This document shows positions 8,651 through 58,570 of a stretch of DNA of 64,000 nucleotides, one piece after another. The DNA lies in the NCBI GenBank assembly GCA_902801025.1, contig CADCGZ010000001.1:11091-75090 (forward strand), in the 5' to 3' direction. Source of the DNA: an uncultured bacterium. Lineage in GTDB: Bacteria > Verrucomicrobiota > Kiritimatiellia > RFP12 > UBA1067. Positions within the stretch are counted from its first letter, which is position 1; every line of letters starts with the position of its first letter. The notes beneath the pieces were generated by a model, which was not told the DNA's origin, did not search any database, and saw only the letters and a program-made list of their open reading frames with translations. Both the position numbers and the translations under genes were made by a program.

Positions 8651-11600
8651 ATGAAAAAGAAACTGACGACCCTCGCACTGACAGCAGCCCTCGGATTGTT
8701 CGCGGGGCCATTCGCCAAGGCCGCCGACGGCGACATCTACGACATCGTGCCGTGCACCGAGTACGGCGTGGACCGAGGCGCGTGGACGATTCCCGACGAT
8801 CCGTTTGGCTCGGGCGTCGACGTCTACTTCAAGATCCGCCTCGTCGCGCGCGAGTTCAACGGCGCTGCCCCGGTCAGCCTCTGGCGCCTCGACTACGACG
8901 GACTTATCTCCCCGAGCGTCGTCTCGAACCTCTACCCGATGCAGATCGGCATCTACGTCTCTGGCAGGCAGACGTTTGCAAAGCTTGACACGGTGCTGGC
9001 CGAGGGCAACTACACGACGGCGCTCATCTTCAAGTACACTACGAAGCCGGGCGACTTCGCGATGCCAATACGCCTTGCGACCGCCGCCGGCCCCGCGGGC
9101 GATGCGATTGGCAACGGCGAGTATGTGTTCAACCCGGCCACCTCCTACTGGAAGATGAGCCGCTACGACTCCAGCAACAACAGCATCTCCGACTGCAACT
9201 GGACCTTTACGTCCGACAACACGAGGATCGGCCGCGCGATAACCGACATCGGCCGCTCGCCAGTCACCGACTACTCGCTCCAGGATTGCGGGATATACGT
9301 CAAGACTGTCGACTTCTCCAACGACTGGGAAGACGCGGCCTATTGGCGCTCGATCCACGAGAACTCGACGATTACCGGCGGCGGCATAAGCCCCCGTCTC
9401 GCGATCACGGCGCCGTCCGACGAGAAGCGCTCGTTCTACGTGTGGTCCTCCGACGAGAGCAAGATCAAGGTCAAGGCCTCCGGGTCCGTCACCGTCTCGC
9501 CGGTCACGATGCAGATCGACTCCTCTGGCACCATGGACACTTTCCAGGTGGCCAAGGTGTCGTTCGAAGGCGGCTCGGGCGATCCCGTTCCGTTCCTCGT
9601 CGAGGCCCAGCCCAACTCGTCGGGCGACACGGCCAACCTCATCCTCAGCGCATACGACCACTTCAACTACTCGGCCTCGTCCACCGACCAGCTCATCGAC
9701 TACATCACGGTTCCCGTGAAGTGCATCGAGGCGCTTCCCGCGAGCGTCATCGTAGAAAGCGCCGACAAGTCGATAACGGCGGACAACGACTACATGACGG
9801 CCAAGACTTCGCTCGCCGTCTATCTCTCGCAGGCGGTTGAAACCAACGTCACCATCACGATCAAGACGACGTTCGAGGACGACGCCACCAAGACCGATTG
9901 GGGCAACTACGTCCGCTTCTCGACTTCCGCCAACACGGTGCAGACCCTTCCGGTCGACAACGAGGTCACGATTACCATTCCCGCCGGCTCGACGGAAAAG
10001 AGGATCGTCTACATCTACGCGCTGCGCGGCGACTCGCATACGACAGGTGACGGGCACCAGGTGAAGTTTACCCCGTACGTCGACCCTGCGGTAATGGCGG
10101 CGGCGGGCATTCAGGATCTCACGGCGGCGGGCCTCTGGATCAGCGCCGCGAAGCCGGTCATCACGACGCCCGACTCGACGAGCACCTATGAGGTCACGGC
10201 AGGCGAGGAACTCGAGATCAACGTCGCCGTGGAGGATACCTACGCCGACATGACCGACACGGCGACCGGCTACCAGGTCAAGATCAAGACCGGCTCGACG
10301 GCAAGCTGGACGACTCTCCCCGAGCGGTTCAAGGTGACCGGCGAGGAAGGCGAGCTTATCGGCCTCACGTCCGGCAACCCGCCGACGATCGAATACCCGT
10401 CCGCCGGCACACAGACGTCGCAGATCCAGGTAATTGCGCCGATCAGCGGCAAGAAGAGCGAAATCGTCACCTTCACCGTGAACGTTGCCGCTGCGAAGAC
10501 GACGAGCGCCATGTCGCTCGACCCCGATCCCGACAACTACGTCGAAGGCGACATCGTGCACTTCCGCATCGCGCTCAGCTCGCAAAACGACACGGGCGCC
10601 CCGATCTACGCGTTCCTCGTCTGCAACGAAGACGTGGATCTCTCGATGTTCGGCGGCACGGCCTCCAAGGCGATCCTGAGGGACAGGACGGCCGCGGCGC
10701 CAGGTTCCGTCGGCAGGCAGATCGGCGAAGTCGGTTCTTACGCCGACAGCTCCTTCACGGTGCTTGATGGCCTTTCCTCGGACGACGGCGGGCTCAACTA
10801 CACGTTCTCCGTGGTCCTCTGCAGGACGAAGGAATACGATCCCGCCCAGCGGCTCGAGGGCTACGCCACGACCGAGATGCTCAACATCACGGTCTACAAC
10901 AAGGAGCCCGAGTTCGTAACCGTGTCCCTCAACGGCTTTGACGCGGACGGCGACGGCTACACGTTCTCCAACCAGTACCCGAAGGGCCAGGACCAGACGA
11001 TCCAGCCGACCTTCGACGACGTCTCCTACGACCTGAAGCACGGCTTCTCCTACAAGTGGACGGCCTCCCGCGACGGCAAGGCCGAGGTGAACGGCACGGT
11101 GATGCACGACACGACCGGAACGGTCACGACGCCAACGACGACCTGGAACGGGAACCAGTGCACGACCGTGGTGCCCGACGGCGAAAACATCAACGAGTGC
11201 CCGATCGTCTACAACTTCCCGCGCGCCGGGACCTGGACCGTCAAGATCCAGATGAAGGACAAGGACATGACGAAGATCTCGCCCGTCTCCTATTCCATCT
11301 CCTTCGTCATACTCTCCAATCCCGCGATCACGATAACGGCCGATTCGTCCTACGACGAAAACCTGAACGCCGCGAAGTTCGACGTCGGGCTCGGCTACTT
11401 CGATTCCGACGACGACATCGTCGTCAAGCTGACCGTTACGCCGCCTGCGGGCACGAACCCGGGATCGCTCGTCCTCGACAACGAGTTCAAGACGGTGCCT
11501 GCGGGCTACCCCGCGCTCGCCGACAACGAGTACTACGTGGTCTTTGACTCCGCGCAGGCGATATCGATCGGCATTGACTCGATGGACGGCACGCGCCTGT

Positions 11601-24809: not shown

Positions 24810-25946
24810 ATGAAAAAGCAGATAAGGAAAGTTCTCGTAATCAACTCGGGCTCAAGCTCGCTCAAGTATCAGCTCTTCGACATGAAGACGGAGACGCGGC
24901 TCGCCAAGGGTCTCGTCGAGCGCATTGGCTGCGGCGGCCCCAAGGACCACGCCGCCGCGCTCGCCAAGGTCGTCGCGGATCTTGGCGACATGGCGAAGGG
25001 CATCGACGCAATCGGCCACCGCATCCTCCACGGCGGCGAGGTCTTCAAGGACTCCGCCGTGATGAACAAGGCGAACATGGCTAAGGCGAAGAAGCTCGTC
25101 AAGTTCGGCCCCTTGCACATGCCCGCCAACCTCGGCGGCGTCGAGGCGTGCGAGAAGATCTTCAAGGGAGTTCCGAACGTCGGCGTCTTCGACACGGCGT
25201 TCCACATTGCGACGATGCCCGACTGCGCGGGAATGTACGCGATCGACCCTAAGTACTACAAGAAGATGGGAATTAGGAAGTACGGCTTCCATGGCACCTC
25301 GCACAAGTTCATCACCCAGGCCGCCGCGAAGTTCCTTAAGAAGCCGCTTGCGAAGGTGAATCTCGTCACGTGCCATCTCGGCAACGGCTCGTCTCTCGCC
25401 GCGATCAAGAACGGCGGCGTCGTAGATACGTCGATGGGGCTCACTCCTCTCGCCGGCATGGTGATGGGGACGAGGTGCGGCGACATCGATGCCGCGGCGG
25501 TTCTCTCCATCATGGAGGCCGAGAAGCTCACGCCCGCCCAGACCGACACGCTGCTCAACAAGAAGTCGGGGCTTCTCGCGCTTACCGGCTCGAGCGACTG
25601 TCGCGACATCTGCACGATGGCCGACAAGGGCAACAAGCAGGCCGAGCTCGCGCTTGAGATGCTCGCCTACCGCGTCGCGCTCTACATCGGCGCGTACAAC
25701 ACAGTCATTGGCGGTGCGGACGCCATCATCATGACAGGCGGCATCGGCGAGAACTCGAAGGAGGTGCGCGAGAGGATCATCCGCCGTCTCGGCGCGCTCG
25801 GCATTAAGCTCGACCCGAAGGCCAACAAGGTCCGCGGCGAAGTCAAGATCATCAGCGCGAAGGGCTCGAAGATCCCCGTTGTCGTCATCCCCACCAACGA
25901 GGAGCTCATGATTGCTCGTGACACCGTGAAAGTGCTGGGAAAGTGA
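24810..25946 (+). CDS. ackA: acetate kinase
   Basis: 378 aa. N-terminal VLVINSGSSSLKYQLFDM matches the acetate/propionate kinase signature. HGTSH, CHLGNGSS and TGGIGENS motifs are present. Confidence 0.95.
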   Translation: MKKQIRKVLVINSGSSSLKYQLFDMKTETRLAKGLVERIGCGGPKDHAAALAKVVADLGDMAKGIDAIGHRILHGGEVFKDSAVMNKANMAKAKKLVKFGPLHMPANLGGVEACEKIFKGVPNVGVFDTAFHIATMPDCAGMYAIDPKYYKKMGIRKYGFHGTSHKFITQAAAKFLKKPLAKVNLVTCHLGNGSSLAAIKNGGVVDTSMGLTPLAGMVMGTRCGDIDAAAVLSIMEAEKLTPAQTDTLLNKKSGLLALTGSSDCRDICTMADKGNKQAELALEMLAYRVALYIGAYNTVIGGADAIIMTGGIGENSKEVRERIIRRLGALGIKLDPKANKVRGEVKIISAKGSKIPVVVIPTNEELMIARDTVKVLGK

Positions 25947-25950
25947 AATC

Positions 25951-26000
25951 GACCCTAAAGGACTCTAAAAGACTCTAAAAGACACTAATTGACCCTACTG
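25951..26000. repeat. 5 x 10-bp phased tandem words GACNCTAANN in the ackA-pta spacer
   Basis: GACCCTAAAG GACTCTAAAA GACTCTAAAA GACACTAATT GACCCTACTG. The same word family occurs inside kdsD, inside uvrA and in the hairpin after the secretin gene. Confidence 0.9.
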
Positions 26001-26002
26001 CT

Positions 26003-27040
26003 ATGAACGCAATCAAGAACATCATTGAAAAGGCCTCGAAGCTGAACGGAACGGTCGTTCTCCCCGAGGGCATGGACCCCCGCGTCATAACCGCCGCGTG
26101 CGCTTGCGTCGACCGCAAGATCGCGACGCCCGTCGTTCTCGGCACTCCCGCGGAAATCGCCGACGCAGAGGCGAAGGCCGGTCTCAAGCTCGCAGACCGC
26201 GGCATCAAGACGATTGACTATACGCAAGGCGACGCGGAACTCGAAGCCGCGTATCTCGAAGCGTGGAACGCAAAGGAGTCGAAGAAGCCGGCCGAGAAGC
26301 AGAAGATCATTGACCTCGCCGCAGCGCAGAAGACGCTCCGCACGAAGCGCATATACTTCGGCGGCATGATGGTTAAGCTTGGTCGCGTCAACGGTCTTGT
26401 CGCGGGTTCGATCGCCTCGACTGGCGACATGCTTCGCGCGGCGTTCCACACGCTTGGCACGCAGAAGGGCGTCAAGACGGCGTCGAGCTGCTTCATCCTC
26501 GACCTCAAGACCCCGACGGCGTCGGGCGACGAAGTGCTCGCGTTCGGCGACTGCGCGGTTATTCCCGATCCGACGGCCGAACAGCTCGTCGACATCGGCC
26601 TTGCTACGGCGCAGACCTACCGCGACCTCACCGGCAAGGAGCCGCGCGTCGCGTACCTCTCGTTCTCCACAAAGGGCTCCGCGGCGGGTCCGCTCGTCGA
26701 GAAGGTCCAGAAGGCCGTCGAGCTCGCAAAGCCCCGCTTCGAGGAAGCCGGCATCAAGATGGATGGCGAGCTGCAGTTCGATGCGGCGATCGTCCCTGCG
26801 ACCGGCAAGCAGAAGAACCCGAACGGCGCCGTGCAGGGCGACGCGAACGTCTTCATTTTCCCTGACCTCAACGCAGGCAACATCGGCTACAAGATCGCGC
26901 AGAGAATCGGTGGCGCCGACGCCATCGGGCCGAACCTCCAGGGACTCGCCAAGGCGATGAACGACCTCTCGCGCGGCTGCTCCGCCGAGGACATCGTTGG
27001 AACCATCTGTGTAACGCTGCTTCAGTCGACGACAAAGTGA
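26003..27040 (+). CDS. pta: phosphate acetyltransferase (short form)
   Basis: 345 aa. VVLPEGMDPRVI, the DCAVIPDP region and FIFPDLNAGNIGYKIAQR are typical Pta/PTA_PTB motifs. Located next to ackA. Confidence 0.95.
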   Translation: MNAIKNIIEKASKLNGTVVLPEGMDPRVITAACACVDRKIATPVVLGTPAEIADAEAKAGLKLADRGIKTIDYTQGDAELEAAYLEAWNAKESKKPAEKQKIIDLAAAQKTLRTKRIYFGGMMVKLGRVNGLVAGSIASTGDMLRAAFHTLGTQKGVKTASSCFILDLKTPTASGDEVLAFGDCAVIPDPTAEQLVDIGLATAQTYRDLTGKEPRVAYLSFSTKGSAAGPLVEKVQKAVELAKPRFEEAGIKMDGELQFDAAIVPATGKQKNPNGAVQGDANVFIFPDLNAGNIGYKIAQRIGGADAIGPNLQGLAKAMNDLSRGCSAEDIVGTICVTLLQSTTK

Positions 27041-28143
27041 CAGACAACAAGATGATCGAGCGCGCGAAGCAAGTCTTCGCAGTTGAGATCGAGGGTCTCG
27101 AGAAGACCCGCGACTCTCTCGGTGCATCTTTTGTCAAGGCGGTCCGGCTCATTCTCGACACTGTCGCGGACGGCGGCATTGTCGTCGTCTCCGGCGTCGG
27201 CAAGAACCTCCACATCGCCGAGAAGATGAGCGCCATCTTCTCTTCGACTGGCACGCGTTCGATCGTCCTCAATCCCGTGCAGGCGATGCATGGCGACCTC
27301 GGCATGGTCTCCGCGAAGGACGTCCTTATCGCGCTTAGCTTCTCCGGCGAGTCGGCCGAGGTCAACAACTTGATTCCCGCGATCCGCCGTCACGGGCTCA
27401 AGGTCATTTCGATGACTGGCCGCCCCGACTCGACGCTTGCGCAGATGAGCGATATCCACATCGAGATTCCGTGCGGCAAGGAGGCGTGTCCGTTCGGCAT
27501 GGCGCCGACGAACTCGACGACGGCGACGATGGCGATGGGCGATGCGCTCGCGATGGTGATGATCGACGCGCAGAAGTTCCCTGTCGAGGACTACGCGATG
27601 AACCATCCGGCGGGCGCGATTGGCAGGGCGCTTGTCATGAAGGTGACGGATGTCATGCGCTCGGGCGAGCGGCTTGCGAAGGTCGGCCCCGAGGCGACCG
27701 TTCTCGATGCGCTGATGGCGATGACGAAGGCGCAGGGCGGCAGTGCCATTGTCGTGGACGCGAGCGGCAAGCTGCTCGGCATCTTCACCGACGGTGACTT
27801 CCGCCGCATCATGAGCGAGAGGGGCAAGTTTGGGTCAAATAGCGTCGGTGTAGAGTCTGGTAGTGTCGGCAAGACCCTGAGCGACTCTAATTCGCCCCTA
27901 AGCGACGCTAAAGGACCCTATTCGACCCTAAGCGACGCTAAAGGACCCTATTCGACCCTAAACGACCCTATCTCCCTCTACATGACCAAGTCTCCGCTCT
28001 TCGTCTACGACGACGCGTATGCTGCGGAGCTCCTCAAGATCTTCGAGAGAAAGCGCATCGACGACCTGCCGGTGTGCGACAAGTCTGGCCGGGTGGTCGG
28101 ACTCGTGGACATCCAAGACCTGCCAAAGATGAAAGTATTGTGA
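27037..28143 (+). CDS. kdsD: KpsF/GutQ-family arabinose-5-phosphate isomerase (SIS + CBS pair) carrying a ~50-codon repeat-derived insertion
   Basis: SIS motifs VVVSGVGKNLHIAEKMSAIFSSTG and ALSFSGES, followed by a CBS pair. GTG 27037 overlaps the pta stop (GTGA); an alternative ATG lies at 27052. The protein is ~40-50 aa longer than typical KdsD, and the excess maps to 27828-27978. Confidence 0.9.
   Translation: MTDNKMIERAKQVFAVEIEGLEKTRDSLGASFVKAVRLILDTVADGGIVVVSGVGKNLHIAEKMSAIFSSTGTRSIVLNPVQAMHGDLGMVSAKDVLIALSFSGESAEVNNLIPAIRRHGLKVISMTGRPDSTLAQMSDIHIEIPCGKEACPFGMAPTNSTTATMAMGDALAMVMIDAQKFPVEDYAMNHPAGAIGRALVMKVTDVMRSGERLAKVGPEATVLDALMAMTKAQGGSAIVVDASGKLLGIFTDGDFRRIMSERGKFGSNSVGVESGSVGKTLSDSNSPLSDAKGPYSTLSDAKGPYSTLNDPISLYMTKSPLFVYDDAYAAELLKIFERKRIDDLPVCDKSGRVVGLVDIQDLPKMKVL
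27828..27978 (+). repeat. in-frame foldback word array inside kdsD: ~4 inverted words (nTAGnGTC) then ~11 forward 10-bp words (GACnCTAn), including a perfect 30-bp x2 duplication (27901-27960)
   Basis: Read directly from the sequence. It encodes KFGSNSVGVESGSVGKTLSDSNSPLSDAKGPYSTLSDAKGPYSTLNDPISL between the two CBS motifs. Confidence 0.9.
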
Positions 28144-28151
28144 TTAAAATA

Positions 28152-28296
28152 AGCCACAAAGAACAGGAGAAAACAGGAGAATGGGAAAGAAAGAACGTAA
28201 TATCACCTATTTGGTGATGAGGGATATTGAAATCGGTGCTGTTGAAATGTCAAATTGCCGAGACAATACCTCCTGTATCTCCTGTTCTTTGTGGCT
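28152..28296. repeat. foldback element: 28-29-bp imperfect inverted repeat (19 bp perfect AGCCACAAAGAACAGGAGA / TCTCCTGTTCTTTGTGGCT) around an AT-rich 88-bp core
   Basis: Left arm 28152-28180 contains AACAGGAGA twice. Right arm 28269-28296 contains the complement TCTCCTGT/CCTCCTGT twice. The core holds a sub-hairpin TCACC..GGTGA. Located between kdsD and the pilus-like cluster. Confidence 0.85.
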
Positions 28297-36696: not shown

Positions 36697-37302
36697 ATGA
36701 AAGTCGCACTAACGGGAGGGATTGCCTGCGGCAAATCCCTCCTTTCTAAGTTTTTGAATGAGCTCGGCGTCGAGACGCTTGACGCCGACGATGTCGTGCA
36801 CGAGTTTCTCCCCGACCCCGAGGAGCGTCGCCGCATCGCGGCTGAAGTCTTCGCCGACCCCGAGAAGCGCCGCGCACTCGAGGCGAAGATACATCCAGTC
36901 GTCAAAGAGAAAATTGACGCTTGGCTTGACAGGACGAGCGGGACTAACAGGACCACCGGGACAGACGTGACAAACGGGACTATCGCCTGTCCCGTTAGTC
37001 TCGGTGGTCTCGTCTGTCCTGTTCGTGTCGCTATAATTCCGCTTTTGTTTGAAGCACACTGGGAGAAAAATTTTGATATAATATGTTGTGTCGCTTCCAC
37101 ACGCGAGAGCCAGATCGAACGTATGACGGCGACGCGGGGGATGACGCTTGCGGAGGCCGAAGCCCGTCTTGCGGCACAGATGCCAGTCGAGGAAAAGGCC
37201 AAGCGTTCGCACTACGTCATTCATAACAACGGCACAGCCGATGAACTTCGCGCAGAGGCGCAAAAATTCGTCGCCTGGTTGCATGAGCAGAAATCCAATT
37301 AA
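36697..37302 (+). CDS. coaE: dephospho-CoA kinase with a 30-codon repeat insertion
   Basis: P-loop VALTGGIACGKS. IHPVV, IPLLFE and the C-terminal HYVIHNNG are typical CoaE. The insertion lies between AWLDR and VAIIPLLFE. Confidence 0.88.
   Translation: MKVALTGGIACGKSLLSKFLNELGVETLDADDVVHEFLPDPEERRRIAAEVFADPEKRRALEAKIHPVVKEKIDAWLDRTSGTNRTTGTDVTNGTIACPVSLGGLVCPVRVAIIPLLFEAHWEKNFDIICCVASTRESQIERMTATRGMTLAEAEARLAAQMPVEEKAKRSHYVIHNNGTADELRAEAQKFVAWLHEQKSN
36940..37029 (+). repeat. 10 x 9-bp in-frame array inside coaE: five GGGACnnnC-type words followed by five reverse-complement GnnnGTCyC-type words
   Basis: GGGACTAAC AGGACCACC GGGACAGAC GTGACAAAC GGGACTATC | GCCTGTCCC GTTAGTCTC GGTGGTCTC GTCTGTCCT GTTCGTGTC. 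It encodes GTNRTTGTDVTNGTIACPVSLGGLVCPVRV. Confidence 0.9.
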
Positions 37303-37328: not shown

Positions 37329-37442
37329 TTTTTAACGCAGAGTAGCGGAGTAGCAGAGTAGCAGAGTTGTTTTGGGCCGCGCAAGCGCGGGGTCTGGGGT
37401 GCAACCCCAGCATCAACATCCTCTGCGTCTCTGCGTTAAAAA
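37329..37442. repeat. foldback element / candidate structured RNA between coaE and rho
   Basis: Perfect 14-bp terminal IR: TTTTTAACGCAGAG (37329-37342) and CTCTGCGTTAAAAA (37429-37442). Left arm has 4 x 8-bp CAGAG words (37335-37366). Right arm has 2 x CTCTGCGT (37421-37436). The core is TTTTGGG plus hairpin CCGCGCAAGCGCGG plus hairpin CTGGGGTGCAACCCCAG (37370-37410). Confidence 0.85.
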
Positions 37443-42000: not shown

Positions 42001-44572
42001 TTGGGAGCCGTTTTCCACCAACATTGTTGCGGATGGCATTCATAAGCTTCAATGGGAAATAACGGAATCGCATTCCGGCACCGACGACGAAGGCATAATG
42101 CTTGACCATGTGACATGGGAGCCTGCGGGTGGTGCAGCCGGCATTGCCGCAGTGGAAATCCCCGTTGCGGTCCCCGGTCTTGTCTACGACGGCACTAAAA
42201 AGATCGGCGTTGACGAGAATGCGGCCTATACGCTTGTCGGTAATGTCGCGACAAACGCGGACGGATATCTCGCGACTGCGACGCTGAACAACAAGGCCGC
42301 AAGCGTCTGGGCAGACGGCACGACGGACGACAGGGAGATCCCGTGGCGAATCGCTACCAAGGTCATAGATCTTAGCGGCGTTGCGTTTGCGGATGCATCG
42401 TGGAAGTTCGACGGCAAATCCAAGAGTATCAATGCCTCCGGCGTGCCCGCTGGTGTAGAGGTGACCTACGATGGCAATAATCGAACAGAGGTTGGCGAAT
42501 ACACGGTGACAGCGTGGTTCAAGAGCACTTCCACTGGAAATCTGCTGACGAACATGACGGCTACGCTCACGATAGAGGCGCTGAGCGTCGGCGAGCCATC
42601 AGCCGTTGCGGGACTCGTCTACGACGGCACGGCGAAGACTGGCGTTGTCGAAAGTGTCGGTTACACGCTTGCCGAGAACGTTGCGACGGCCGCAGGCGAT
42701 TATGTCGCGACGGCAACGCTTGACGCCGGATATGTCTGGTCCGACAACACGACTGGACCGAAGGAGATTTCGTGGTCGATTGCGCGCGCTACATACGACA
42801 TGGGCGACGTGTTGTTTGAAGACGGGACGTTTGAGTTCGACGGCACGAATCTGTATCTTGCCGTGGAGGGAGATCTTCCCGATGGCGTTGACGTCTACTA
42901 CCTGTACAACGGGAAGTCCGGCGTCGGCTCTTATACGGTCATTGCCAGGTTCACGGCATCCGATGCCGTCAACTACGAGCCGATTCCAGATCTTGCGGCC
43001 ACGCTGACTATCGTGCTCCCTCCGACGAAGATTGAGGTGCCGACGGCCGTGTCGGGGCTTGTCTACGACGGTGCGGCGCAGATCGGCGTCCTTGAAGGCG
43101 TTGGATACGCCCTTGCCGGGAACGTCGAGACGAACGCGGGCTCGCATGCCGCTACCGCGACGCTGGAGGACGGGTATGTCTGGGCTGACGGCACGACGGT
43201 TGCGCAGACAATCCACTGGTCTATTGCCAAGGCAACATACGACATGAGCGGGGTGTCGTTCGCGAGCAAGACGTTTGAGGCCGATGGCACGAAAAAATCT
43301 ATTGCCATTACGGGAACGCTTCCTTCTGGCGTGAAGGTGTCTTATGTTGGCAACGGCCAGACCGAGCCCGGGACATACACGGTGACGGCGAAATTCACGG
43401 GTGACGCGAACAACTACAATTCGATTTCAGATAAAAAGGCCACACTGACCATAACGAAGAAGTCTGATCCTGTCCCGCCAGGCCCAGGCCCTGGGCCAGA
43501 ACCCGATCCTGATCCAGTGGACGAGACGCCCGATCTGTATCCGAGCGGAGTCGCGGTGCTTGGCGCATTCACGGCCGAGAAGGCAGAGACCTACAACGGC
43601 TGGCTTAAGGATGATGCCGAGCGAGTCGTCGCATTGCTGACAGTGAAGACGACAGCGGCAAAATCTGGCAAGCAGACTAAGTCGACGATCACAGTGACGC
43701 CTGTCAATGGAAAGAAGTACACAAAGAAAACGTCTTTCGATCCAGGGGGGAATCCGACCGACGAATTTGGCATCGTCTACGGCTCGCGTGGGCTCCTTGG
43801 CACATTTGGCGGTTATTCCGTCGAGGCCGGTGTAGATGTCTACAAATCCAAGATTTCCGAGGTAAAGGCCCTTGCTGCGAATATTCCAGTTGCGACGCAT
43901 ACGTTCTCCGTCGACACTGGGAACGGCATGGCGGTGTTCTCGGCCGTGATTGCCAAGACTGGCAAGACGAAAGTCCAGGGATATCTTGAAGACGGCGCAA
44001 AGATATCGGTCTACACTACCGGTGCGCTTGGGGAAGAATACTTTGCCGTCCCTGTCGTTTCGCCAAAAGCGGCGACGCGGTGTGGGTTTGTCCTCTGGTT
44101 CCCCCTTGACGGCGGTTCGCCGACACTCGCAAACTTCTACGATTCGAACTGGACGGCTTCGCTGTCTGGTGGATCATACGCCCTGGCCAACGGTGAGCAT
44201 GTCTTTGACTTCGAGGAGCCGGACTTCCGCAATTATCTCGCTTCAGTCGACGGCTTTGCCGTTGCGCCCGTTGGAGCCGTGTTTACCGTTAAGCGCGGCA
44301 AATGGGACGCCGGCAAGACGGTCGGCCGTCTCAAGGTTATCGATGGCGCACCGGCTGTCACCGGAACTTCGTCGCCGTCGAATCTGTCCGCGCTTAAGCT
44401 GACGTATACTGCGAAGTCGGGGCTTGTGAAGGGCTCGTTCAAGCTGTACTATATGGATGGCAAGCGGCTTAAGAATGACACTGTGACGGTTACGGGCGTT
44501 GTTGTCGACGGCAAGCTATTCGGAAGTGGCACAATCAAGAAGCTCGGCTCCTTTGCCGTAACGGCGGAATGA
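39086..44572 (+). CDS. large surface protein (1828 aa): ~10 Listeria-Bacteroides (InlB B / Flg_new) repeats, then YDG-containing MBG-like repeat pairs, a Pro-rich linker and a C-terminal domain
   Basis: GGAGG RBS at 39075-39079. Signal peptide [19 protein letters not shown]. Repeats of the type [24 protein letters not shown]...LYAVW. Repeated VxGLVYDGTxKxGV...ATLTI units. Linker [19 protein letters not shown]. Confidence 0.9.
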
Positions 44573-47481
44573 GCGACATCAGCATACACAACGCCAAGGT
44601 CCACAACCTCAAGGGGATAGACGTCACGATTCCCCGTGACTCGCTTACGGTCGTGACGGGGCTTTCGGGGAGCGGCAAGTCGTCGCTCGCGTTCGACACG
44701 CTCTATGCGGAAGGCCAGCGTCGCTACGTCGAGTCGCTTTCCGCGTATGCGCGGCAGTTCCTCGACAGGATGCAGAAGCCGGACGTAGAAAAGATAGAAG
44801 GGCTCTCGCCTGCGATCTCCATCGAGCAGCGAACGACGAGCGGCAACCCGCGCTCGATTGTCGCGACCGTCACCGAGATACACGACTACCTGCGAATCCT
44901 CTACGGCGCGATTGCGGTTGCGCACTGTCCGCACTGCGGCAAGCCGGTCACTAAGCAGTCGGCGGAGCAGATTGTGGAGGCGATTCTCGGGGAATGGGGA
45001 ACGGGAAACGGGGAACGGGCAGGTGGCGCAAAAATTATCATCTACGCCCCTCTCGTGAAGGGCAAGAAGGGGCGGCACGAAGAGCCGCTTGCCGCCGTCA
45101 AGCGCAACGGCTTTGCGCGCGTCAAGATCGACGGCACGATATATCCCGTCGACGAGCTTCCCGCGCTCGACAAGAAAAAGGCGCACACCATTGACGTCGT
45201 GGTTGACCGCCTCGTGATTCCGGCGGCGCCCGACGCAGCGTTCAAGACGCGCCTCACCGATTCCGTCGAACTTGCTCTCAAGACCGGCAAGGGCATAATG
45301 GAGGTGGAGAGATTGGGGAACGGGGAACGGGATATATACTCAGAACTCAACGCGTGTCCCGATTGCGGTATTTCCTTTGACGAGCTGAAGGCGCGGTCGT
45401 TCTCGTTCAACTCGCCCTTTGGTGCATGTCCGACATGCGCGGGGCTTGGGCAGCTCTACTACTTCGACGAAGATCTCGTCGTGCCCGACAAGTCGCTTCC
45501 GCTCGAGGAGGCGATACACCCGTGGCGTCGCATGGGGCAGATGAACATCCTCTATCACAAGGAGCTTCTTTCGCAAATCGCAAAGCAGAACAAGGTGAAG
45601 CTCTCGACTCCCTACGAGAAGCTGCCGGCGAAGTTCCGACACGGGCTTATGCACGGCTTCAAGGAAGACCTCGTTCTTCCGTGGCGGCGCGTCGACCGTC
45701 CGTTCGAGGGAGTCCTCGCGTCGCTTCAGCGGCGGCTCGACGAGGCGGAGGACGACGAGATGCGTGCGAAGTTCGAGGCATACCAGAGCTTCCGTACCTG
45801 CCCCGACTGCGGCGGTTCGCGGCTTAGGCCCGAGTCGCGCGCGGCGACTGTCGCCGGGAAGTCGATAGTAGAGGTAATGGCGATGCCGGTCACCGAGGCG
45901 CTCGAGTTTTTCAGCGCCATTCAAGATTATGCAAATGGCGTAGTGTCTGATAGAGGTGCGACCCTAACCGACTCTAATCGCCTCCACGGCCTCAAGGACA
46001 TCATCGCGGAGATCGTGCGGCGGCTCCAGTTCCTTCTCGACGTTGGACTAGACTATCTGACGCTCGACCGCGCCGCGTCAACTCTCTCCGGCGGCGAAAT
46101 GCAGCGCATCCGCCTCGCGACGCAAATCGGCTCTGGGCTCACGGGAGTTCTTTATGTGCTCGACGAGCCGACAATCGGCCTCCACCCGCGCGACAACGAG
46201 CGGCTTATCTCTACCCTAAAGGGGCTCCGCGACCGCGGCAACACCGTCGTCGTCGTAGAGCACGACGAAGAGATGATGAGGAACGCCGACTACATCGTCG
46301 ACCTTGGTCCCGGCGCGGGGCGTGAAGGCGGGAAGGTGATGTACCAGGGCGACTTCAAGGGGCTCCTAAAGTCTAAGTCGCTCACCGCCGACTACCTCAC
46401 GGGGAGGAAGAGGGTGGTGACGGCCGACGACCGGCAGCCGACAGTCGCAAGTCGAAAGTCGAACGGATTGTCGGGTGACGGTTGCCGACTGTCGAAAAAC
46501 TCCGCCTACCTCACCATCTCCGGCTGCACCGAGCACAACCTCAAGAACATCACCGCCCGCTTCCCCGTAGGCGCGTTCACCGTGGTGACAGGCGTCTCTG
46601 GCTCCGGCAAGTCGACGCTCGTCGACGAAACGCTAAAGAGGGCGCTTCTCCAGAAGTTCTACCACGCGAAGGCCGTCCCCGGCAAGTTCAAGAAGCTCAC
46701 TGGCTTCGAGAACTTCGACAAGATTGTGGAGATCGACCAATCGCCTATCGGCCGCACTCCGCGCTCGAACCCGGCGACGTACGTCGGCTTCTTCTCCGAG
46801 ATACGCGAGCTTTTCGCGAAGACAGAGTCGGCGCGCGCGCGCGGCTACACTGCGGGGCGCTTCTCGTTCAATGTGAAGGGCGGAAGGTGCGAGACGTGCG
46901 GCGGCGATGGCCTCCAGAAGCTCGAGATGAGCTTCCTCCCCGATGTCTACGTCACATGCGACCAGTGCGGCGGCAAGCGCTTCAACGCCGAGACTCTTGA
47001 AGTCACCTACGGCGGCAAGAACATCGCCGATGTCCTCGAGATGACGGTCGCCGAGGGGTGCGAGTTCTTCGCGAAGGTGCCGTCCCTCGCCCGCAAGCTC
47101 CAGACGCTTGTCGACGTCGGGCTTGGCTATGTCGCTCTCGGGCAGTCCGCGACGACGCTCTCAGGCGGCGAGGCACAGCGCATCAAGCTCGCGACGGAAC
47201 TTTCACGCCGCTCGACGGGCCGCACACTCTATCTTCTCGACGAACCGACGACGGGGCTCCACTTCGACGACGTGGCGAAGCTGATGAAGCTTCTCCTGCG
47301 GCTCCGCGACCAGGGGAACACGATCATCGTCATTGAGCACAACGTAGACGTGATGAGGTGCGCCGACTGGATCGTCGATCTCGGGCCCGGCGGGGGCGAT
47401 GCGGGCGGCGAGCTTGTCTGCGAAGGGCCGATTTCGGCCATTAAGGCATGCAAATCTTCCATCACTGGGCGCTTTTTGTAA
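44569..47481 (+). CDS. uvrA: excinuclease ABC subunit A
   Basis: 970 aa. [58 protein letters not shown] and [12 protein letters not shown] are present. The ATG overlaps the upstream stop (ATGA, 44569-44572). Confidence 0.96.
45938..45985 (+). repeat. in-frame copy of the GACCCTAA-family foldback element inside uvrA
   Basis: GTAGTGTCTGATAGAGGTGCGACCCTAACCGACTCTAATCGCCTCC aligns with kdsD 27850-27898 (GTAGAGTCTGGTAGTGTCGGCAAGACCCTGAGCGACTCTAATTCGCCCC). It encodes ..[18 protein letters not shown].. in a segment that I recall as longer than in E. coli UvrA. Confidence 0.8.
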
Positions 47482-47492
47482 TCCGCCCTTTT

Positions 47493-47501
47493 TGATATAA
47501 T
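47493..47501 (+). promoter_or_regulatory. extended -10 promoter (TGATATAAT) upstream of recA
   Basis: The TTTTTGATATAAT motif recurs at 37071-37082 and, as TATAAC, at 57986-57998. It would give recA a ~100-nt leader containing the CTCTGCG array. Confidence 0.45.
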
Positions 47502-47567
47502 ACTGGCAAGTGAAATTCAACCGAAACCAACCATGAGAAAATCTGCACGCCAGTCCGAAGCATCCAC

Positions 47568-47591
47568 GCTCTGCGGCTCTGCGCCTCTGCG
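47568..47591 (+). repeat. 3 x 8-bp CTCTGCGN tandem words in the recA leader
   Basis: CTCTGCGG CTCTGCGC CTCTGCGT then TAAG. This matches the right arm of the 37329-37442 element. No complementary left arm is present. Confidence 0.85.
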
Positions 47592-47608
47592 TTAAGACAT
47601 TTCAAACA

Positions 47609-55467: not shown

Positions 55468-55521
55468 CCAGCGCCTCATCCAAAAGTAAACGCGCGTTCT
55501 GAAAGTAAGCGCACAAGAATT

Positions 55522-55745
55522 AACTCCGATCGTTTGGGCTCTCGCTACCGCTCCGCTGCTTCGCGAGGCCTCAACGACAATCCAGTGAGTGGAATTGTCT
55601 TTTGGGGCCGCCTTCGGCAGAGGAGGTCTGGAGGAAACCTCCTCCAGCTTAAAGACAATCAGCATCATTCAGCGAGAAACGAATGATGGGCGCGAAGCAA
55701 ATGTAATTCTGCGGAGCGGTAGCGAGAGCCCTGCTGATCGGAGTT
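55522..55745. repeat. long-stem hairpin element, copy A (224 bp)
   Basis: Left arm AACTCCGATCGTTTGGGCTCTCGCTACCGCTCCGCTGCTTCGCG (55522-55565). Right arm CGCGAAGCA..GCGGAGCGGTAGCGAGAGCCCTGCTGATCGGAGTT (55691-55745), including a perfect 21-bp pairing. The interior holds TTTTGGGG plus two hairpins (55600-55647). Confidence 0.9.
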
Positions 55746-55775
55746 TGTGAATCGATGAGAAACGCACTACAAGTA

Positions 55776-55784
55776 TGGTATAAT
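55776..55784 (+). promoter_or_regulatory. extended -10 promoter TGGTATAAT, 9 nt upstream of the parE-like ATG
   Basis: TATGGTATAATATCTGCTCTATG has the same geometry as the tkt promoter TATGGTATAATATACCCCCTATG. Confidence 0.5.
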
Positions 55785-55793
55785 ATCTGCTCT

Positions 55794-57607
55794 ATGGCTA
55801 CAGACTACGGTGATAAAAGCATAAAGACTCTCGATCCGGTGACGCACATCCGCCTGCGTCCCGGCATGTACGTCGGCGAACCCGGCACGGGCGCGATGTA
55901 CCATGACTGCATCTACATCCTGATGAAGGAAGTGATCGACAACGCGATCGACGCGGGCGAAGTGTCCGTGCGCGACTACGGGCGCGGCATTCCGCTTGGC
56001 AAGGTCGTCGACTGCGTCTCGCAGATGAATACCGGCGGCAAGTACGACAACGAGAACTACCAGTTCTCCGCCGGTATGAACGGCGTCGGCACGAAGGCCG
56101 TGAACGCGCTTTCCGAGTTCTTCGAGGTGCGCTCGTTCCGCGACGGCGAGTTCTCCGAGGCGTATTTCGAGGAAGGGCGACTAAAGTCCAAGAAGCGCGG
56201 CAAGCTCAAGACGAACGAGCATTCGGGAACGTACATCCGCTACAAGCCCGACCTCAAGGTTCTGAAGAAGTTCAAGGTGCGCGAGGAACACGTCCTCAGG
56301 CGCATGAAGATGTACTGCTACGTGAACGCGGGGCTGACGATAGTCCTGAACGGCCAGGAGATCTGCTCCGACCGCGGGCTTGCCGACCTCATCGCTGACG
56401 AGGCGCAGTTCGAGAAGCTCTACCAGCCGTTCCACGTGAAGACGAAGTCGCTCGAGATAATCTTCACGCACACCAACCGCTTCGGCGAGGAGTACCACAC
56501 GTTCGTGAACGGCCAGTACACGACCGACGGCGGCACGCACCTCACGGCGTTCAAGGAGGCGCTCACCAAGGCGCTCAACGACTACGACCCGAAGAAGAAG
56601 TTTGACGGCGACGACATCCGCGACGGTCTTCTCGGCGCGGTGTCGGTGAGGATCATGAACCCCGTCTTCGAGGGGCAGACGAAGATCAAGTTCGTGATGA
56701 ACGACATCAAGTCCGAGCTCGTCCAGCAGATGAAGAAGGAGATCGAGGCGGCGCTCCACCGCTCGCCCTCCGAAGCCGACAAGCTCATCTCCAAGGTCGA
56801 GGAGACGGGGAAGATACGCTCGCAGCTCAACACGATAAAGAAGCAGGCGCGCGAGAGGTCAAGCAGGCGCGCGAGAGGTCGCAGGCCGTCTCGGTGCGCG
56901 TTCCGCAGCTCAAGGACTGCAAGAACCACCTGAAGCTCGACAAGGTCGACAAGAAGACCGGGAAGGCCGAGGGCGAGGACACGATGATCTTCCTCACTGA
57001 GGGCCAGTCGGCGGGCGGCACGCTCGGCGGCGCGCGCGACGCGATGAACCAGGCGGTCTTCTTCCTGCGCGGCAAGTGCCTCAACACGTGCGGGCTCAAC
57101 AAGGACGTTCTCTACAAGAACGAGGAGTTTTTCAACCTCATCAAGACGCTCGACATCGAGGACACGCTCGAGCACCTTCGCTACGGGAAGATCATCTTCG
57201 CGACGGATGCCGATGTCGACGGACTCCACATCAGGATGCTCCTCACGACGTTCTTCATGCGCTTCTACCGCCAGCTCATCCTCGACGGGCGCGTCTTCAT
57301 CCTCGAAACGCCCCTCTTCCGCGTCAGGAACAAGAAGGAGCACTACTTCTGCTACACAGACGAGGAGCGCGAGGACGCGATAAAGAAGTGCGGGCGCGGC
57401 TGCGAGATCACGCGCTTCAAGGGACTTGGCGAGATCGACAAGGAGGACTTCAGGGGCTTCATCGGCGAGGAGATGCGCCTTACGCCCGTGACTTGCTCCG
57501 ACGACACAGACGTCGAGAAGACGATCAAGTTCTACATGGGCGCCAACACGCCCGAGCGCAAGGACTACATCATGGAGTCTCTCGTCTGCGACGCCGCCGA
57601 GTTCTGA
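55794..57607 (+). pseudogene. parE: type IIA topoisomerase subunit B (ParE/GyrB family, Bacteroidetes/PVC-type topo IV B-like) disrupted by a 20-bp tandem duplication
   Basis: The GHKL region (EVIDNAID, DYGRGIP, NTGGKYD, GMNGVGTKAVNALS) and transducer lie in frame 3 up to ~56880. Toprim (FLTEGQSAGG, ATDADVDGLHI) and the tail (RFKGLGEI) lie in frame 2 from 56894. Deleting one copy of 56841-56860 restores a single ~597-aa ORF that reads ..KKQARERSQAVSVRVPQLKDCKNH... Confidence 0.8.
56841..56880 (+). repeat. perfect 20-bp tandem duplication AAGCAGGCGCGCGAGAGGTC x2
   Basis: 56841-56860 is identical to 56861-56880. Twenty nt is +2 in reading frame, which is exactly the observed frame change. Confidence 0.97.
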
Positions 57608-58037: not shown

Positions 58038-58440
58038 TTGACATCGTTGGAGGTTCCCCAGTTTTTCGGGCATGAAAACGGCCACACCCCTGTAAACAAA
58101 GGGTGAAGTGGTGATTTTCATTTCGCGATAAGTGAAAACTCCTTTCCCGATTTTCTAAGCAACTCCGAGCGTTTGGGCTCCCGCTACCGCTCCGCAGCTT
58201 CGCGTCCCTCAACGACTGAATATGTGCAGGGTTAAGCGTTTGGGGATGCGACTGCGTCGCATAAATCGGCCGAGGGCCGCTATAAACACTATGAAAGGAG
58301 TCACTTGATCGTGGTTGAAAAGCGCGAAGCAGTGAAGCGGTAGCGGGAACCCTAACCATCGGAGTTTCTGAAATTCCGCGCGGGGTGTCGGAAAGGGGCG
58401 GCAGTACCTGCGAAAATTGGGGAACCTCCAATTGACATCG
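58038..58440. mobile_element. non-autonomous transposable element (MITE, 385 bp) with 19-bp terminal inverted repeats and a perfect 9-bp target-site duplication
   Basis: TSD TTGACATCG at 58038-58046 and 58432-58440. Left TIR TTGGAGGTTCCCCAGTTTT (58047-58065). The reverse complement of the right TIR (58413-58431) is TTGGAGGTTCCCCAATTTT, an 18/19 match. No transposase ORF lies inside. Confidence 0.75.
58161..58366. repeat. long-stem hairpin element, copy B (206 bp), nested inside the MITE
   Basis: Arms are ~90% identical to copy A (AACTCCGAGCGTTTGGGCTCCCGCTACCGCTCCGCAGCTTCGCG ... CGCGAAGCAGTGAAGCGGTAGCGGGAACCCTAACCATCGGAGTT). The interior holds TTTGGGG plus hairpins ATGCGACTGCGTCGCAT and CGGCCGAGGGCCG (58239-58279). 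Confidence 0.9.
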
Positions 58441-58481
58441 GCATTGCCACGAGGGGCGCGATTTGGTAGACTACGCGGAGA

Positions 58482-58570
<89 letters not shown>

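Follow-up and report, generated by a model that had tools for sequence, protein, structure and literature searches.

Three two-hairpin loci in a gut Kiritimatiellae contig are probably gene-less copies of a palindromic repeat superfamily linked to GxxExxY gene cassettes

Several described systems resemble the hairpin-rich DNA considered here, which lies at three places in a 64,000-nucleotide stretch (the window; contig CADCGZ010000001.1 of assembly GCA_902801025.1, positions 11,091 to 75,090, forward strand) from an uncultured bacterium of the Kiritimatiellia. Rickettsia palindromic elements (RPEs) are palindromic repeats that sit in frame within housekeeping genes. Intervening sequences of 23S rRNA hold an open reading frame (ORF) flanked by long inverted repeats, and RNase III excises them. 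[quoted passage not shown] They have terminal inverted repeats (TIRs), a target-site duplication and long hairpins, and they lie mostly just 5' of genes (PMC10969869). RNase III cleaves Correia-containing transcripts (PMC10969869).

A first-pass annotation of the window had singled out three loci, here called c37, c55 and c58, in which TTTG3-4 is followed by two hairpins. It proposed either a structured RNA under selection or a hairpin recognised by a transposase. We conclude that the three loci are probably gene-less copies of one palindromic repeat superfamily of gut and rumen Kiritimatiellae, and that the hairpins belong to selfish or domesticated DNA and do not form an RNA gene of their own. 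The complete form, 0.7-0.8 kb long, would be a cassette in which imperfect inverted-repeat arms surround a GxxExxY gene, predicted to encode a protein of the PD-(D/E)XK fold and served by an extended -10 promoter of its own. The family is dispersed and multi-copy, the c58 form lies inside a transposase-mobilised MITE, and chimeras have recombined via shared arms. The window copies and the sites beside them are laid out as follows.

37332-37439, + strand: c37 element, a gene-less palindromic cassette with ends TTAACGCAGAG ... CTCTGCGTTAA
37337-37366, + strand: c37 5' arm, tandem 8-nt units GCAGAGTA GCGGAGTA GCAGAGTA GCAGAG
37370-37410, + strand: c37 core, made of TTTTGGG (37370-37376), hairpin 1 CCGCGCAAGCGCGG (37377-37390), GGT and hairpin 2 CTGGGGTGCAACCCCAG (37394-37410), closed by GTTG (37366-37369) and CAAC (37414-37417)
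37421-37439, + strand: c37 3' arm, CTCTGCGT CTCTGCG TTAA, two units
55479-55745, + strand: c55 element, a left module followed by a subfamily B long-inverted-repeat element, placed in the family alignment
55522-55565, + strand: c55 5' arm, AACTCCGATCGTTTGGGCTCTCGCTACCGCTCCGCTGCTTCGCG
55600-55647, + strand: c55 core, first described as TTTTGGGG (55600-55607), GCCGCCTTCGGC (55607-55618) and CTGGAGGAAACCTCCTCCAG (55628-55647); TTTTGGGG pairs with upstream GGCCTCAA (55567-55574) in the minimum-free-energy fold
55664-55687, + strand: c55 hairpin 3, ATCATTCAGCGAGAAACGAATGAT
55692-55745, + strand: c55 3' arm, CGCGAAGC...GCGGAGCGGTAGCGAGAGCCCTGCTGATCGGAGTT
55755-55784, + strand: promoter-like site of a gyrB-like gene, extended -10 TGGTATAAT
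58038-58046 (left) and 58432-58440 (right), no strand: 9-bp target-site duplication TTGACATCG that flanks the c58 MITE
58047-58431, + strand: MITE that holds c58, 385 bp, with TIRs TTGGAGGTTCCCCAGTTTTT (58047-58066) and GAAAATTGGGGAACCTCCAA (58412-58431)
58161-58366, + strand: c58 inner element, subfamily A, with arms at 58161-58204 and 58323-58366
58239-58279, + strand: c58 core, made of TTTGGGG (58239-58245), hairpin ATGCGACTGCGTCGCAT (58246-58262) and hairpin CGGCCGAGGGCCG (58267-58279)
58444-58472, + strand: tRNA-Leu promoter-like site, TTGCCA-17-TAGACT with an upstream TG

Every string first reported for the three loci was found at its coordinates on the + strand, and GGTCTGG precedes hairpin 2 in both c37 and c55. 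We scanned both window strands with a pattern in which TTTG{3,4} precedes two perfect hairpins, the first of 4 bp or more and the second of 5 bp or more, with no more than 9 nt between them. The pattern matched three times, at 37371, 55601 and 58239, all on the + strand, and nowhere else. In 100 shuffles that kept the dinucleotide counts, matches averaged 0.14 and never exceeded 1. The three-locus recurrence is real and beyond chance.

The two-hairpin cores are only the apex of larger elements, which measure 108 nt (c37), 267 nt (c55) and 385 nt (c58). These fold far more stably than their shuffles, with z-scores of -11.4 for c55, -7.7 for c58 and -5.0 for c37. In the predicted folds of c55 and c58, TTTGGGG pairs with an upstream CCTCAA(CG). 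The c55 fold places hairpin 1 at 55608-55620, with one C.A mismatch, followed by AGGAGGT and hairpin 2 at 55628-55647. The outer stems described for c37 and c55 exist as complementary strings, GTTG/CAAC in the former and ATTGTC/GACAAT (55594-55599 / 55654-55659) in the latter. In c55, ATTGTC has a second possible partner, an upstream GACAAT at 55578-55583, which the minimum-free-energy structure prefers.

The elements belong to a dispersed family. A scan with a 22-base motif from the c55 arm, CGCTACCGCTCCGCNGCTTCGCG, against one genome per species returned 64 loci, nearly all in metagenome-assembled genomes (MAGs) labelled Kiritimatiellae or Lentisphaerae. The hosts of these MAGs were goat, yak, deer, cattle and human gut, and a single MAG held 17 matches. 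Three size classes emerged: type A of 164-165 nt (c58), type B of 181-182 nt (c55) and type C of 217-218 nt. Gene-bearing forms of 425-735 nt and tandem arrays also occur. In one locus (L004 3413-4367), four long-inverted-repeat elements stand in tandem about 260 nt apart in one intergenic region. The arms of c55 (a 35-nt inverted repeat, 89% complementary to 55711-55745) and c58 (59 nt, 78% complementary) are about 86% identical to each other. The left module of c55 (55479-55521) carries two AAGTAAxCGC motifs.

The product of the long forms is a 130-aa protein with a match to TIGR04256, 'GxxExxY protein' (E = 1e-32), the family that Pfam lists as PF13366, PDDEXK_3. None of the three window copies carries this gene (0/3). 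Two full-length loci, L051 and L185, read in the sense of the gene as arm, hairpin 3, hairpin 2 (CTGGAGGAAnnTTCCTCCAG ACCTCCTCT), extended -10 promoter, GxxExxY gene and arm. In full-length copies the gene and its promoter sit exactly between hairpin 1 and the AGAGGAGGTCTGG hairpin 2, whose distance to the -10 box downstream of it ranges from about 9 nt (L185) to about 60 nt (L051). TTTGGGG and hairpin 1 lie past the 3' end of the gene on the antisense strand; in L051 their complement stands between the end of the gene and the arm. The c55 element aligns with the full-length copies on both sides of the gene, with the gene and promoter gone, and is thus colinear with L051 and L185 as a gene-less miniature of the cassette. 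Type C keeps about 35 nt more than c55. Membership in the cassette family, a grouping defined here and not taken from publications, comes from this colinearity for c55, from the arms for c58, and from the core and arm style for c37.

On this alignment, the hairpin 1-spacer-hairpin 2 unit would be the junction at the position that the gene occupies in complete copies. The directly joined hairpins of c55 and c37 may have arisen by deletion of the gene, giving a MITE-like form, or may be the empty site of a homing-type gene that never invaded. The second route resembles free-standing homing endonuclease genes in that a nuclease-fold gene stands exactly between modules that are contiguous in gene-less copies, as invaded and empty sites would be. 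It differs in that the gene-bearing L185 lacks hairpin 1, and a deletion origin of the short forms is equally possible. The arms may be the functional ends, and the GxxExxY nuclease may recognise them, which would allow homing-like spread. Alternatively, the arms may pair with each other in read-through RNA; RNase III could cleave the resulting long duplex, and the insertion would then do no harm to neighbouring genes. The 23S rRNA intervening sequences offer a parallel, as a small ORF of unassigned function is looped out by a long stem and insertion into transcription units is tolerated. Here, by contrast, the elements lie between or within protein-coding genes, the ORF is GxxExxY, and RNase III processing is only a conjecture.

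GxxExxY itself is a large family that is almost absent from the searchable literature and entered a survey of PD-(D/E)XK proteins as a family of unknown function. It had no match in sets of defence systems, phage families and solved structures. Its 380 close homologues lie mostly on short contigs that end at repeats. In a human-gut Kiritimatiellae locus (L191 1281-2097), a mini long-inverted-repeat element holds TTTTTGGGG and one hairpin. It stands directly 5' of a GxxExxY gene (198 aa) that sits as an insertion within a type III secretion operon.

The c58 element is mounted in a second structure. Alignment of the flanks of type A copies set the limits of a MITE with 20-nt TIRs and the 9-bp duplication listed above. 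At least eight other copies are flanked by their own 8-10-bp duplications. TIRs and duplications together are the signature of transposase-mediated insertion. Type C copies have a related shell whose repeats begin CTGGAGTTTACCCATTTTTT, shells and inner types are combined in varying ways among copies, and no empty shell without an inner element occurred in the fetched loci. Wherever the features of a MITE were checked, they were present: TIRs (for c37, the ends TTAACGCAGAG / CTCTGCGTTAA were counted as such), a duplication (c58), short length, multiple copies and no transposase gene.

These elements share with Correia and ERIC sequences a small size, multiple transposase-less copies, TIRs, a duplication, long-hairpin folds and a position 5' of genes. 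The target-site duplication of Correia elements is TA, as against 9 bp here. Other differences from both are that no internal promoter is predicted here, that the MITE encloses a further inverted-repeat element akin to a gene cassette, and that the element ends at a constant 12-13 nt from a resident -35 box, in a single orientation.

Several copies are chimeric or truncated, and at least one arm is broken by an IS110-family element. Mixed shells, chimeras, truncations and the broken arm point to recombination through shared arms and to ongoing decay. Type A copies had seemed to be nested within GxxExxY genes at four loci (L017, L020, L027, L061), but we rejected this reading, as the junctions are replacement or chimeric ones. 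At L186 (457-1921), an element with an IS110-family transposase breaks the arm after GCGGAG, and at L001, L023 and L027 the end of a different insertion sequence (IS), GGTATAATGTAGAACGAACGC..., occupies the same arm position after GGTAGCGAG. The arms appear to be preferred IS targets.

An insertion in an arm invites comparison with repetitive extragenic palindromic (REP) sequences, which are known IS110-family targets, and thereby with the second option of the first-pass annotation. In that option the hairpins would be single-stranded DNA of the REP/bacterial interspersed mosaic element (BIME) or IS200/IS605 type, recognised by a Y1 (HUH) transposase or a REP-associated tyrosine transposase (RAYT). 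The likeness extends to repeated, multi-copy extragenic palindromes that serve as targets for other IS, as in L186. The elements are much larger, however, at 108-385 nt with arms of 35-59 nt, and they have TIRs and 8-10-bp duplications that are absent from IS200/IS605 and REPs. Complete copies carry a gene of the PD-(D/E)XK fold, not Y1_Tnp. The genes in or next to the elements were GxxExxY, an IS66-like ORF (a label from reading the sequence, not from a profile search) and IS110; no Y1 gene lay in any element examined, though whole genomes were not exhaustively searched. We consider recognition by a Y1 enzyme extremely improbable. What holds of that option is that the hairpins are a module of a mobile element. 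By eye, we also saw no convincing GTTRRRY/RYYYAAC pair of an integron attC site; an integrase was not sought.

The c37 element lies in the intergenic region that runs from the stop of coaE (37302) to the start of rho (37511). It folds as a single long hairpin of 108 nt (z = -5.0 as + strand RNA, -6.4 as - strand DNA) and lacks the long arm of the c55/c58 type. Two stretches, TTGT(C)TTTTGGG(G)CCGC and GGTCTGGRG...CYCCAGC, are common to it and the c55 subfamily. A metagenome scan with the c37 hairpin 2 pattern gave more than 120 matches, among which only L069, L093/L146, L107, L129 and L167 are true homologues. Copies stand upstream of rho in related strains with an extra 8-nt unit in the 3' arm; L107, L129 and L167 have three units there, that is, one extra TCTCTGCG. 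One copy at another locus is oriented opposite to its flanking genes, one variant has different arms of CAGGAG units, and one copy lies inside uvrA (L167).

Most matches of the scan were rejected as c37 relatives. They are unrelated repeats with a GGGGTCTGGGG-loop-CCCCAGC hairpin from worm-associated and soil metagenomes. A CGCGGGGTCTGGGG-loop-CCCCAGC hairpin recurs in unrelated families of soil (L065, L084, L110, L137) and worm metagenomes (many of L066-L184), none with an Rfam match. In soil bacteria it belongs to a multi-hairpin intergenic element, which in L084 adjoins an ssb-like ORF (assigned by eye), and in gutless-worm metagenomes to a highly repeated element. Within the window, 28152-28296 is a further palindromic element with a perfect 19-nt inverted repeat. 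Its arms are built of AACAGGAG units, as in the L069 variant of c37, and its interior is A+T-rich over about 100 nt where c37 has the two-hairpin core.

The copy inside uvrA is translated. In L167 a 1009-aa ORF reads straight through a c37-type element that holds hairpins 1 and 2 in frame (10380-10560). In the window, uvrA (44569-47481) has a different in-frame palindrome at the same site (46387-46533, fold -59.7 kcal/mol), between ADYLTG and YLTISGCTE. The coaE gene (36697-37302) likewise contains an in-frame palindrome (36929-37032) with 44-nt arms of about 8-nt GGGAC units, which adds about 25 residues between the conserved HP...PLL motifs. By analogy, these palindromes resemble RPEs and would be hard to square with a gene-specific RNA. 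They differ from RPEs in phylum and sequence, in their 8-nt tandem-repeat arms and in the link to a GxxExxY cassette; c37 itself is intergenic.

Other repeats were seen nearby. Further uvrA sites vary by GTGNGER-type repeat peptides (from window positions 44968, 45298 and 45883). Repeats of 10-nt and 30-nt period lie at 25939-26007 and 27882-27990 (GACTCTAAAA... and CGACCCTAAGCGACGCTAAAGGACCCTATT). Those at 27882-27990 are apparently translated as repeated peptides ahead of the C terminus of an ORF with its stop at about 28143, which by eye may be CBS-like.

In-frame translation bears directly on the first option, a structured noncoding RNA gene or riboswitch-like leader in which TTTGGGG and the two hairpins are under selection. 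Folding z-scores of -5 to -11 fit an RNA, as do a few G.U pairs and compensatory differences between hairpins 1 and 2 of c37 and c55. Arm pairs show a slight excess of G.T over A.C (129 vs 90), although the copies are non-independent and the count is not decisive. Against these stand the uvrA copy of the same element, the 0.5-kb gene that parts the two hairpins in full-length copies, and a minus strand whose fold is as good as that of the plus strand. Predictions gave no promoter or terminator within the elements; in none of the three is there an intrinsic terminator, since the T run comes before the hairpin. Both c55 and c58 end before -10/-35 boxes and so lie upstream of their neighbours' promoters, outside gene leaders.

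No Rfam family accounts for the hairpins either. In gathering-score mode, Rfam 15 found only tRNAs in the window, and 16 related loci gave no match. In E-value mode, the best candidate was the hammerhead HH10, which scored 24.8 bits against a gathering score of 75 and was rejected because the CUGAUGA catalytic core is absent. A JUMPstart/ops-like match, GCGGTAGCG, scored 15.6 bits, which is at chance level. Loop sequences gave no strand either. A tetraloop argument for the RNA strand was dropped, as the apparent 'UUCG' of hairpin 1 forms a UUC triloop or else a loop of 5 nt. The c37 loop CAAG reads CUUG on the other strand, and the c37 and c55 loops favour opposite strands.

The claim that structure had been preserved under sequence change proved weak. 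We ran RNAalifold on 18 distinct type A and 17 type B/C sequences, which returned covariation terms of -0.7 and -0.4 kcal/mol and compensatory changes at 1/50 and 2/66 pairs. Covariation within subfamilies is near nil because the stems are invariant. Between c37 and c55, about three positions changed on both sides with the pair kept, too few events to carry weight. The c58 hairpins form a separate module, a different subfamily core, and are not positional homologues of the c55/c37 hairpins with compensatory changes. We consider an independent RNA very unlikely. A role of the long stems at the RNA level is nonetheless plausible: by analogy with Correia elements, they may be RNase III substrates in read-through transcripts.

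The position of the elements relative to promoters is regular. We defined the MITE 3' end in the TTTGGGG orientation and assigned the sides by manual re-sorting. Promoter motifs were used because flanking-gene orientations taken from crude ORF calls were unreliable in this G+C-rich DNA. The 3' end is followed by the duplication and, after 3-4 nt, by a -35-like hexamer that a 17-18-nt spacer separates from an extended -10; the -35 lies 12-13 nt from the MITE end. This layout occurs on the 3' side of 16 of 21 copies and on the 5' side of 2 of 18. In a looser test, an outward extended -10 within 220 nt was found in 25/39 cases on the 3' side and 4/39 on the 5' side. The promoter-phased MITEs hold c58-type and type C elements and include window 58047-58431 and L003, L016, L026, L029, L036, L041, L043, L046, L047 and L049, among others. 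The -35 box of tRNA-Leu (58482-58570) begins 13 nt past the MITE end. The c55 arm stops 33 nt short of the gyrB-like -10 box, and the likely ATG of that gene (55794) is 10 nt past the box, which predicts a nearly leaderless mRNA.

Two side observations concern neighbouring genes. The gyrB/parE-like gene (55794-57607) is split into two overlapping frames (55755-56933 and 56894-57607), while its orthologues in other strains (L196, L198) are single 614-aa proteins; either a frameshift or a misassembly explains the split. At 47565-47595 a solo 3' arm, CTCTGCGGCTCTGCGCCTCTGCGTTAA, follows a TTTGATATAAT promoter-like site (about 47491-47502) and precedes the start of recA (47609), so that it probably belongs to the recA leader.

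Fixed phase and orientation point to targeted insertion or selection. Under selection, the elements would be domesticated cis-acting DNA, large hairpins retained just upstream of sigma-70-type promoters for their effect there. They might act as an insulator or a 3'-end-forming RNase III site for read-through transcripts, or as a DNA cruciform, bend or UP-like tuner of the promoter. The 12-13-nt spacing with its marked side bias, the excess of outward -10 motifs, the c55 arm that stops before the -10 box, and the tRNA-Leu copy fixed across sampled strains all agree with such a role. Targeted insertion accounts for the pattern equally well, however. The sequences between element and promoter are unrelated, the duplications are ordinary insertion scars, and gene-bearing, truncated, chimeric and tandem copies resemble decaying mobile DNA. 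Copies of the c37 type also occur in either orientation and within coding sequences. We regard such domestication as unlikely, though it is the chief rival of the far more probable mobile repeat superfamily set out above.

A set of observations nevertheless weighs against the repeat superfamily with gene-less copies. The orientation and spacing relative to promoters are strict, which hints at a function for the host; a purely selfish model does not foresee one. The tRNA-Leu MITE shows no presence/absence polymorphism in any strain sampled, and a cognate autonomous IS with the MITE terminal repeats (CTGGAGTTTACCC / TTGGAGGTTCCCC) is absent from the fetched loci. A clear target-site duplication is missing at c55, where none is recognisable, and at c37, where there is only an ambiguous TTAA. 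L185, an apparently complete cassette, lacks TTTGGGG and hairpin 1, so this module is dispensable. Type B fits equally well as a deletion derivative and as an uninvaded target site. Transposition of the elements and nuclease activity of GxxExxY are putative.

GxxExxY genes in other phyla show a similar arrangement. A tblastn search of plasmid records yielded eight such genes, and five of the eight lie between co-directional housekeeping genes with inverted repeats on either side. The repeats abut the neighbouring genes and are 16-30 nt long and 72-92% complementary; in four of the five cassettes the arms are arrays of about 8-nt units. Besides Kiritimatiellae, the phyla are Bacteroidota, Spirochaetota, Pseudomonadota and Gemmatimonadota; in Gemmatirosa the gene is beside, not inside, a cassette. 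The five cassettes are these.

Bacteroides finegoldii (L193 613-1084): arms 30 nt, 90% complementary, TTCACCACAGAGGACGCAGAGGACACGGAG
Bernardetia (L195 636-1086): arms 28 nt, 86% complementary
Sphingomonas (L206 353-789): arms 25 nt, 92% complementary; gene between fabD and fabG
Prevotella (L194): arms 25 nt, 72% complementary, ACAAATNG units
Treponema (L192): arms 16 nt, 88% complementary; no evident 8-nt unit

The cross-phylum architecture is that of c37 with a gene added, and the arms in Bacteroides, Bernardetia and Sphingomonas match the GCAGAG-repeat arms of c37 in style. We tentatively suggest that GxxExxY proteins mark an undescribed class of hairpin-bounded selfish gene cassettes across several phyla, a wider reading that we hold to be possible but well short of probable. 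The arms and the hairpin 1/hairpin 2 site would then be the recognition or homing site of the nuclease, the arms may allow RNA-level excision from operons, and the Kiritimatiellae cassettes would have been captured by a promoter-phased, fixed-orientation MITE.

The hairpin core alone is ordinary repetitive DNA. Its interest lies in the link to the GxxExxY cassette, the promoter-phased MITE and the in-frame palindromes. Palindromes in the essential genes uvrA and coaE would be RPE-like elements outside Rickettsia. The elements break assemblies and could be mis-annotated as ORFs or noncoding RNAs in gut Kiritimatiellae MAGs. Placement of the MITE at the -35 box with single-turn precision, in one orientation, suggests promoter-targeted transposition or recruitment as a promoter-upstream module. 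For the GxxExxY/PDDEXK_3 family, which has no assigned function, the cassettes would provide a first functional handle.

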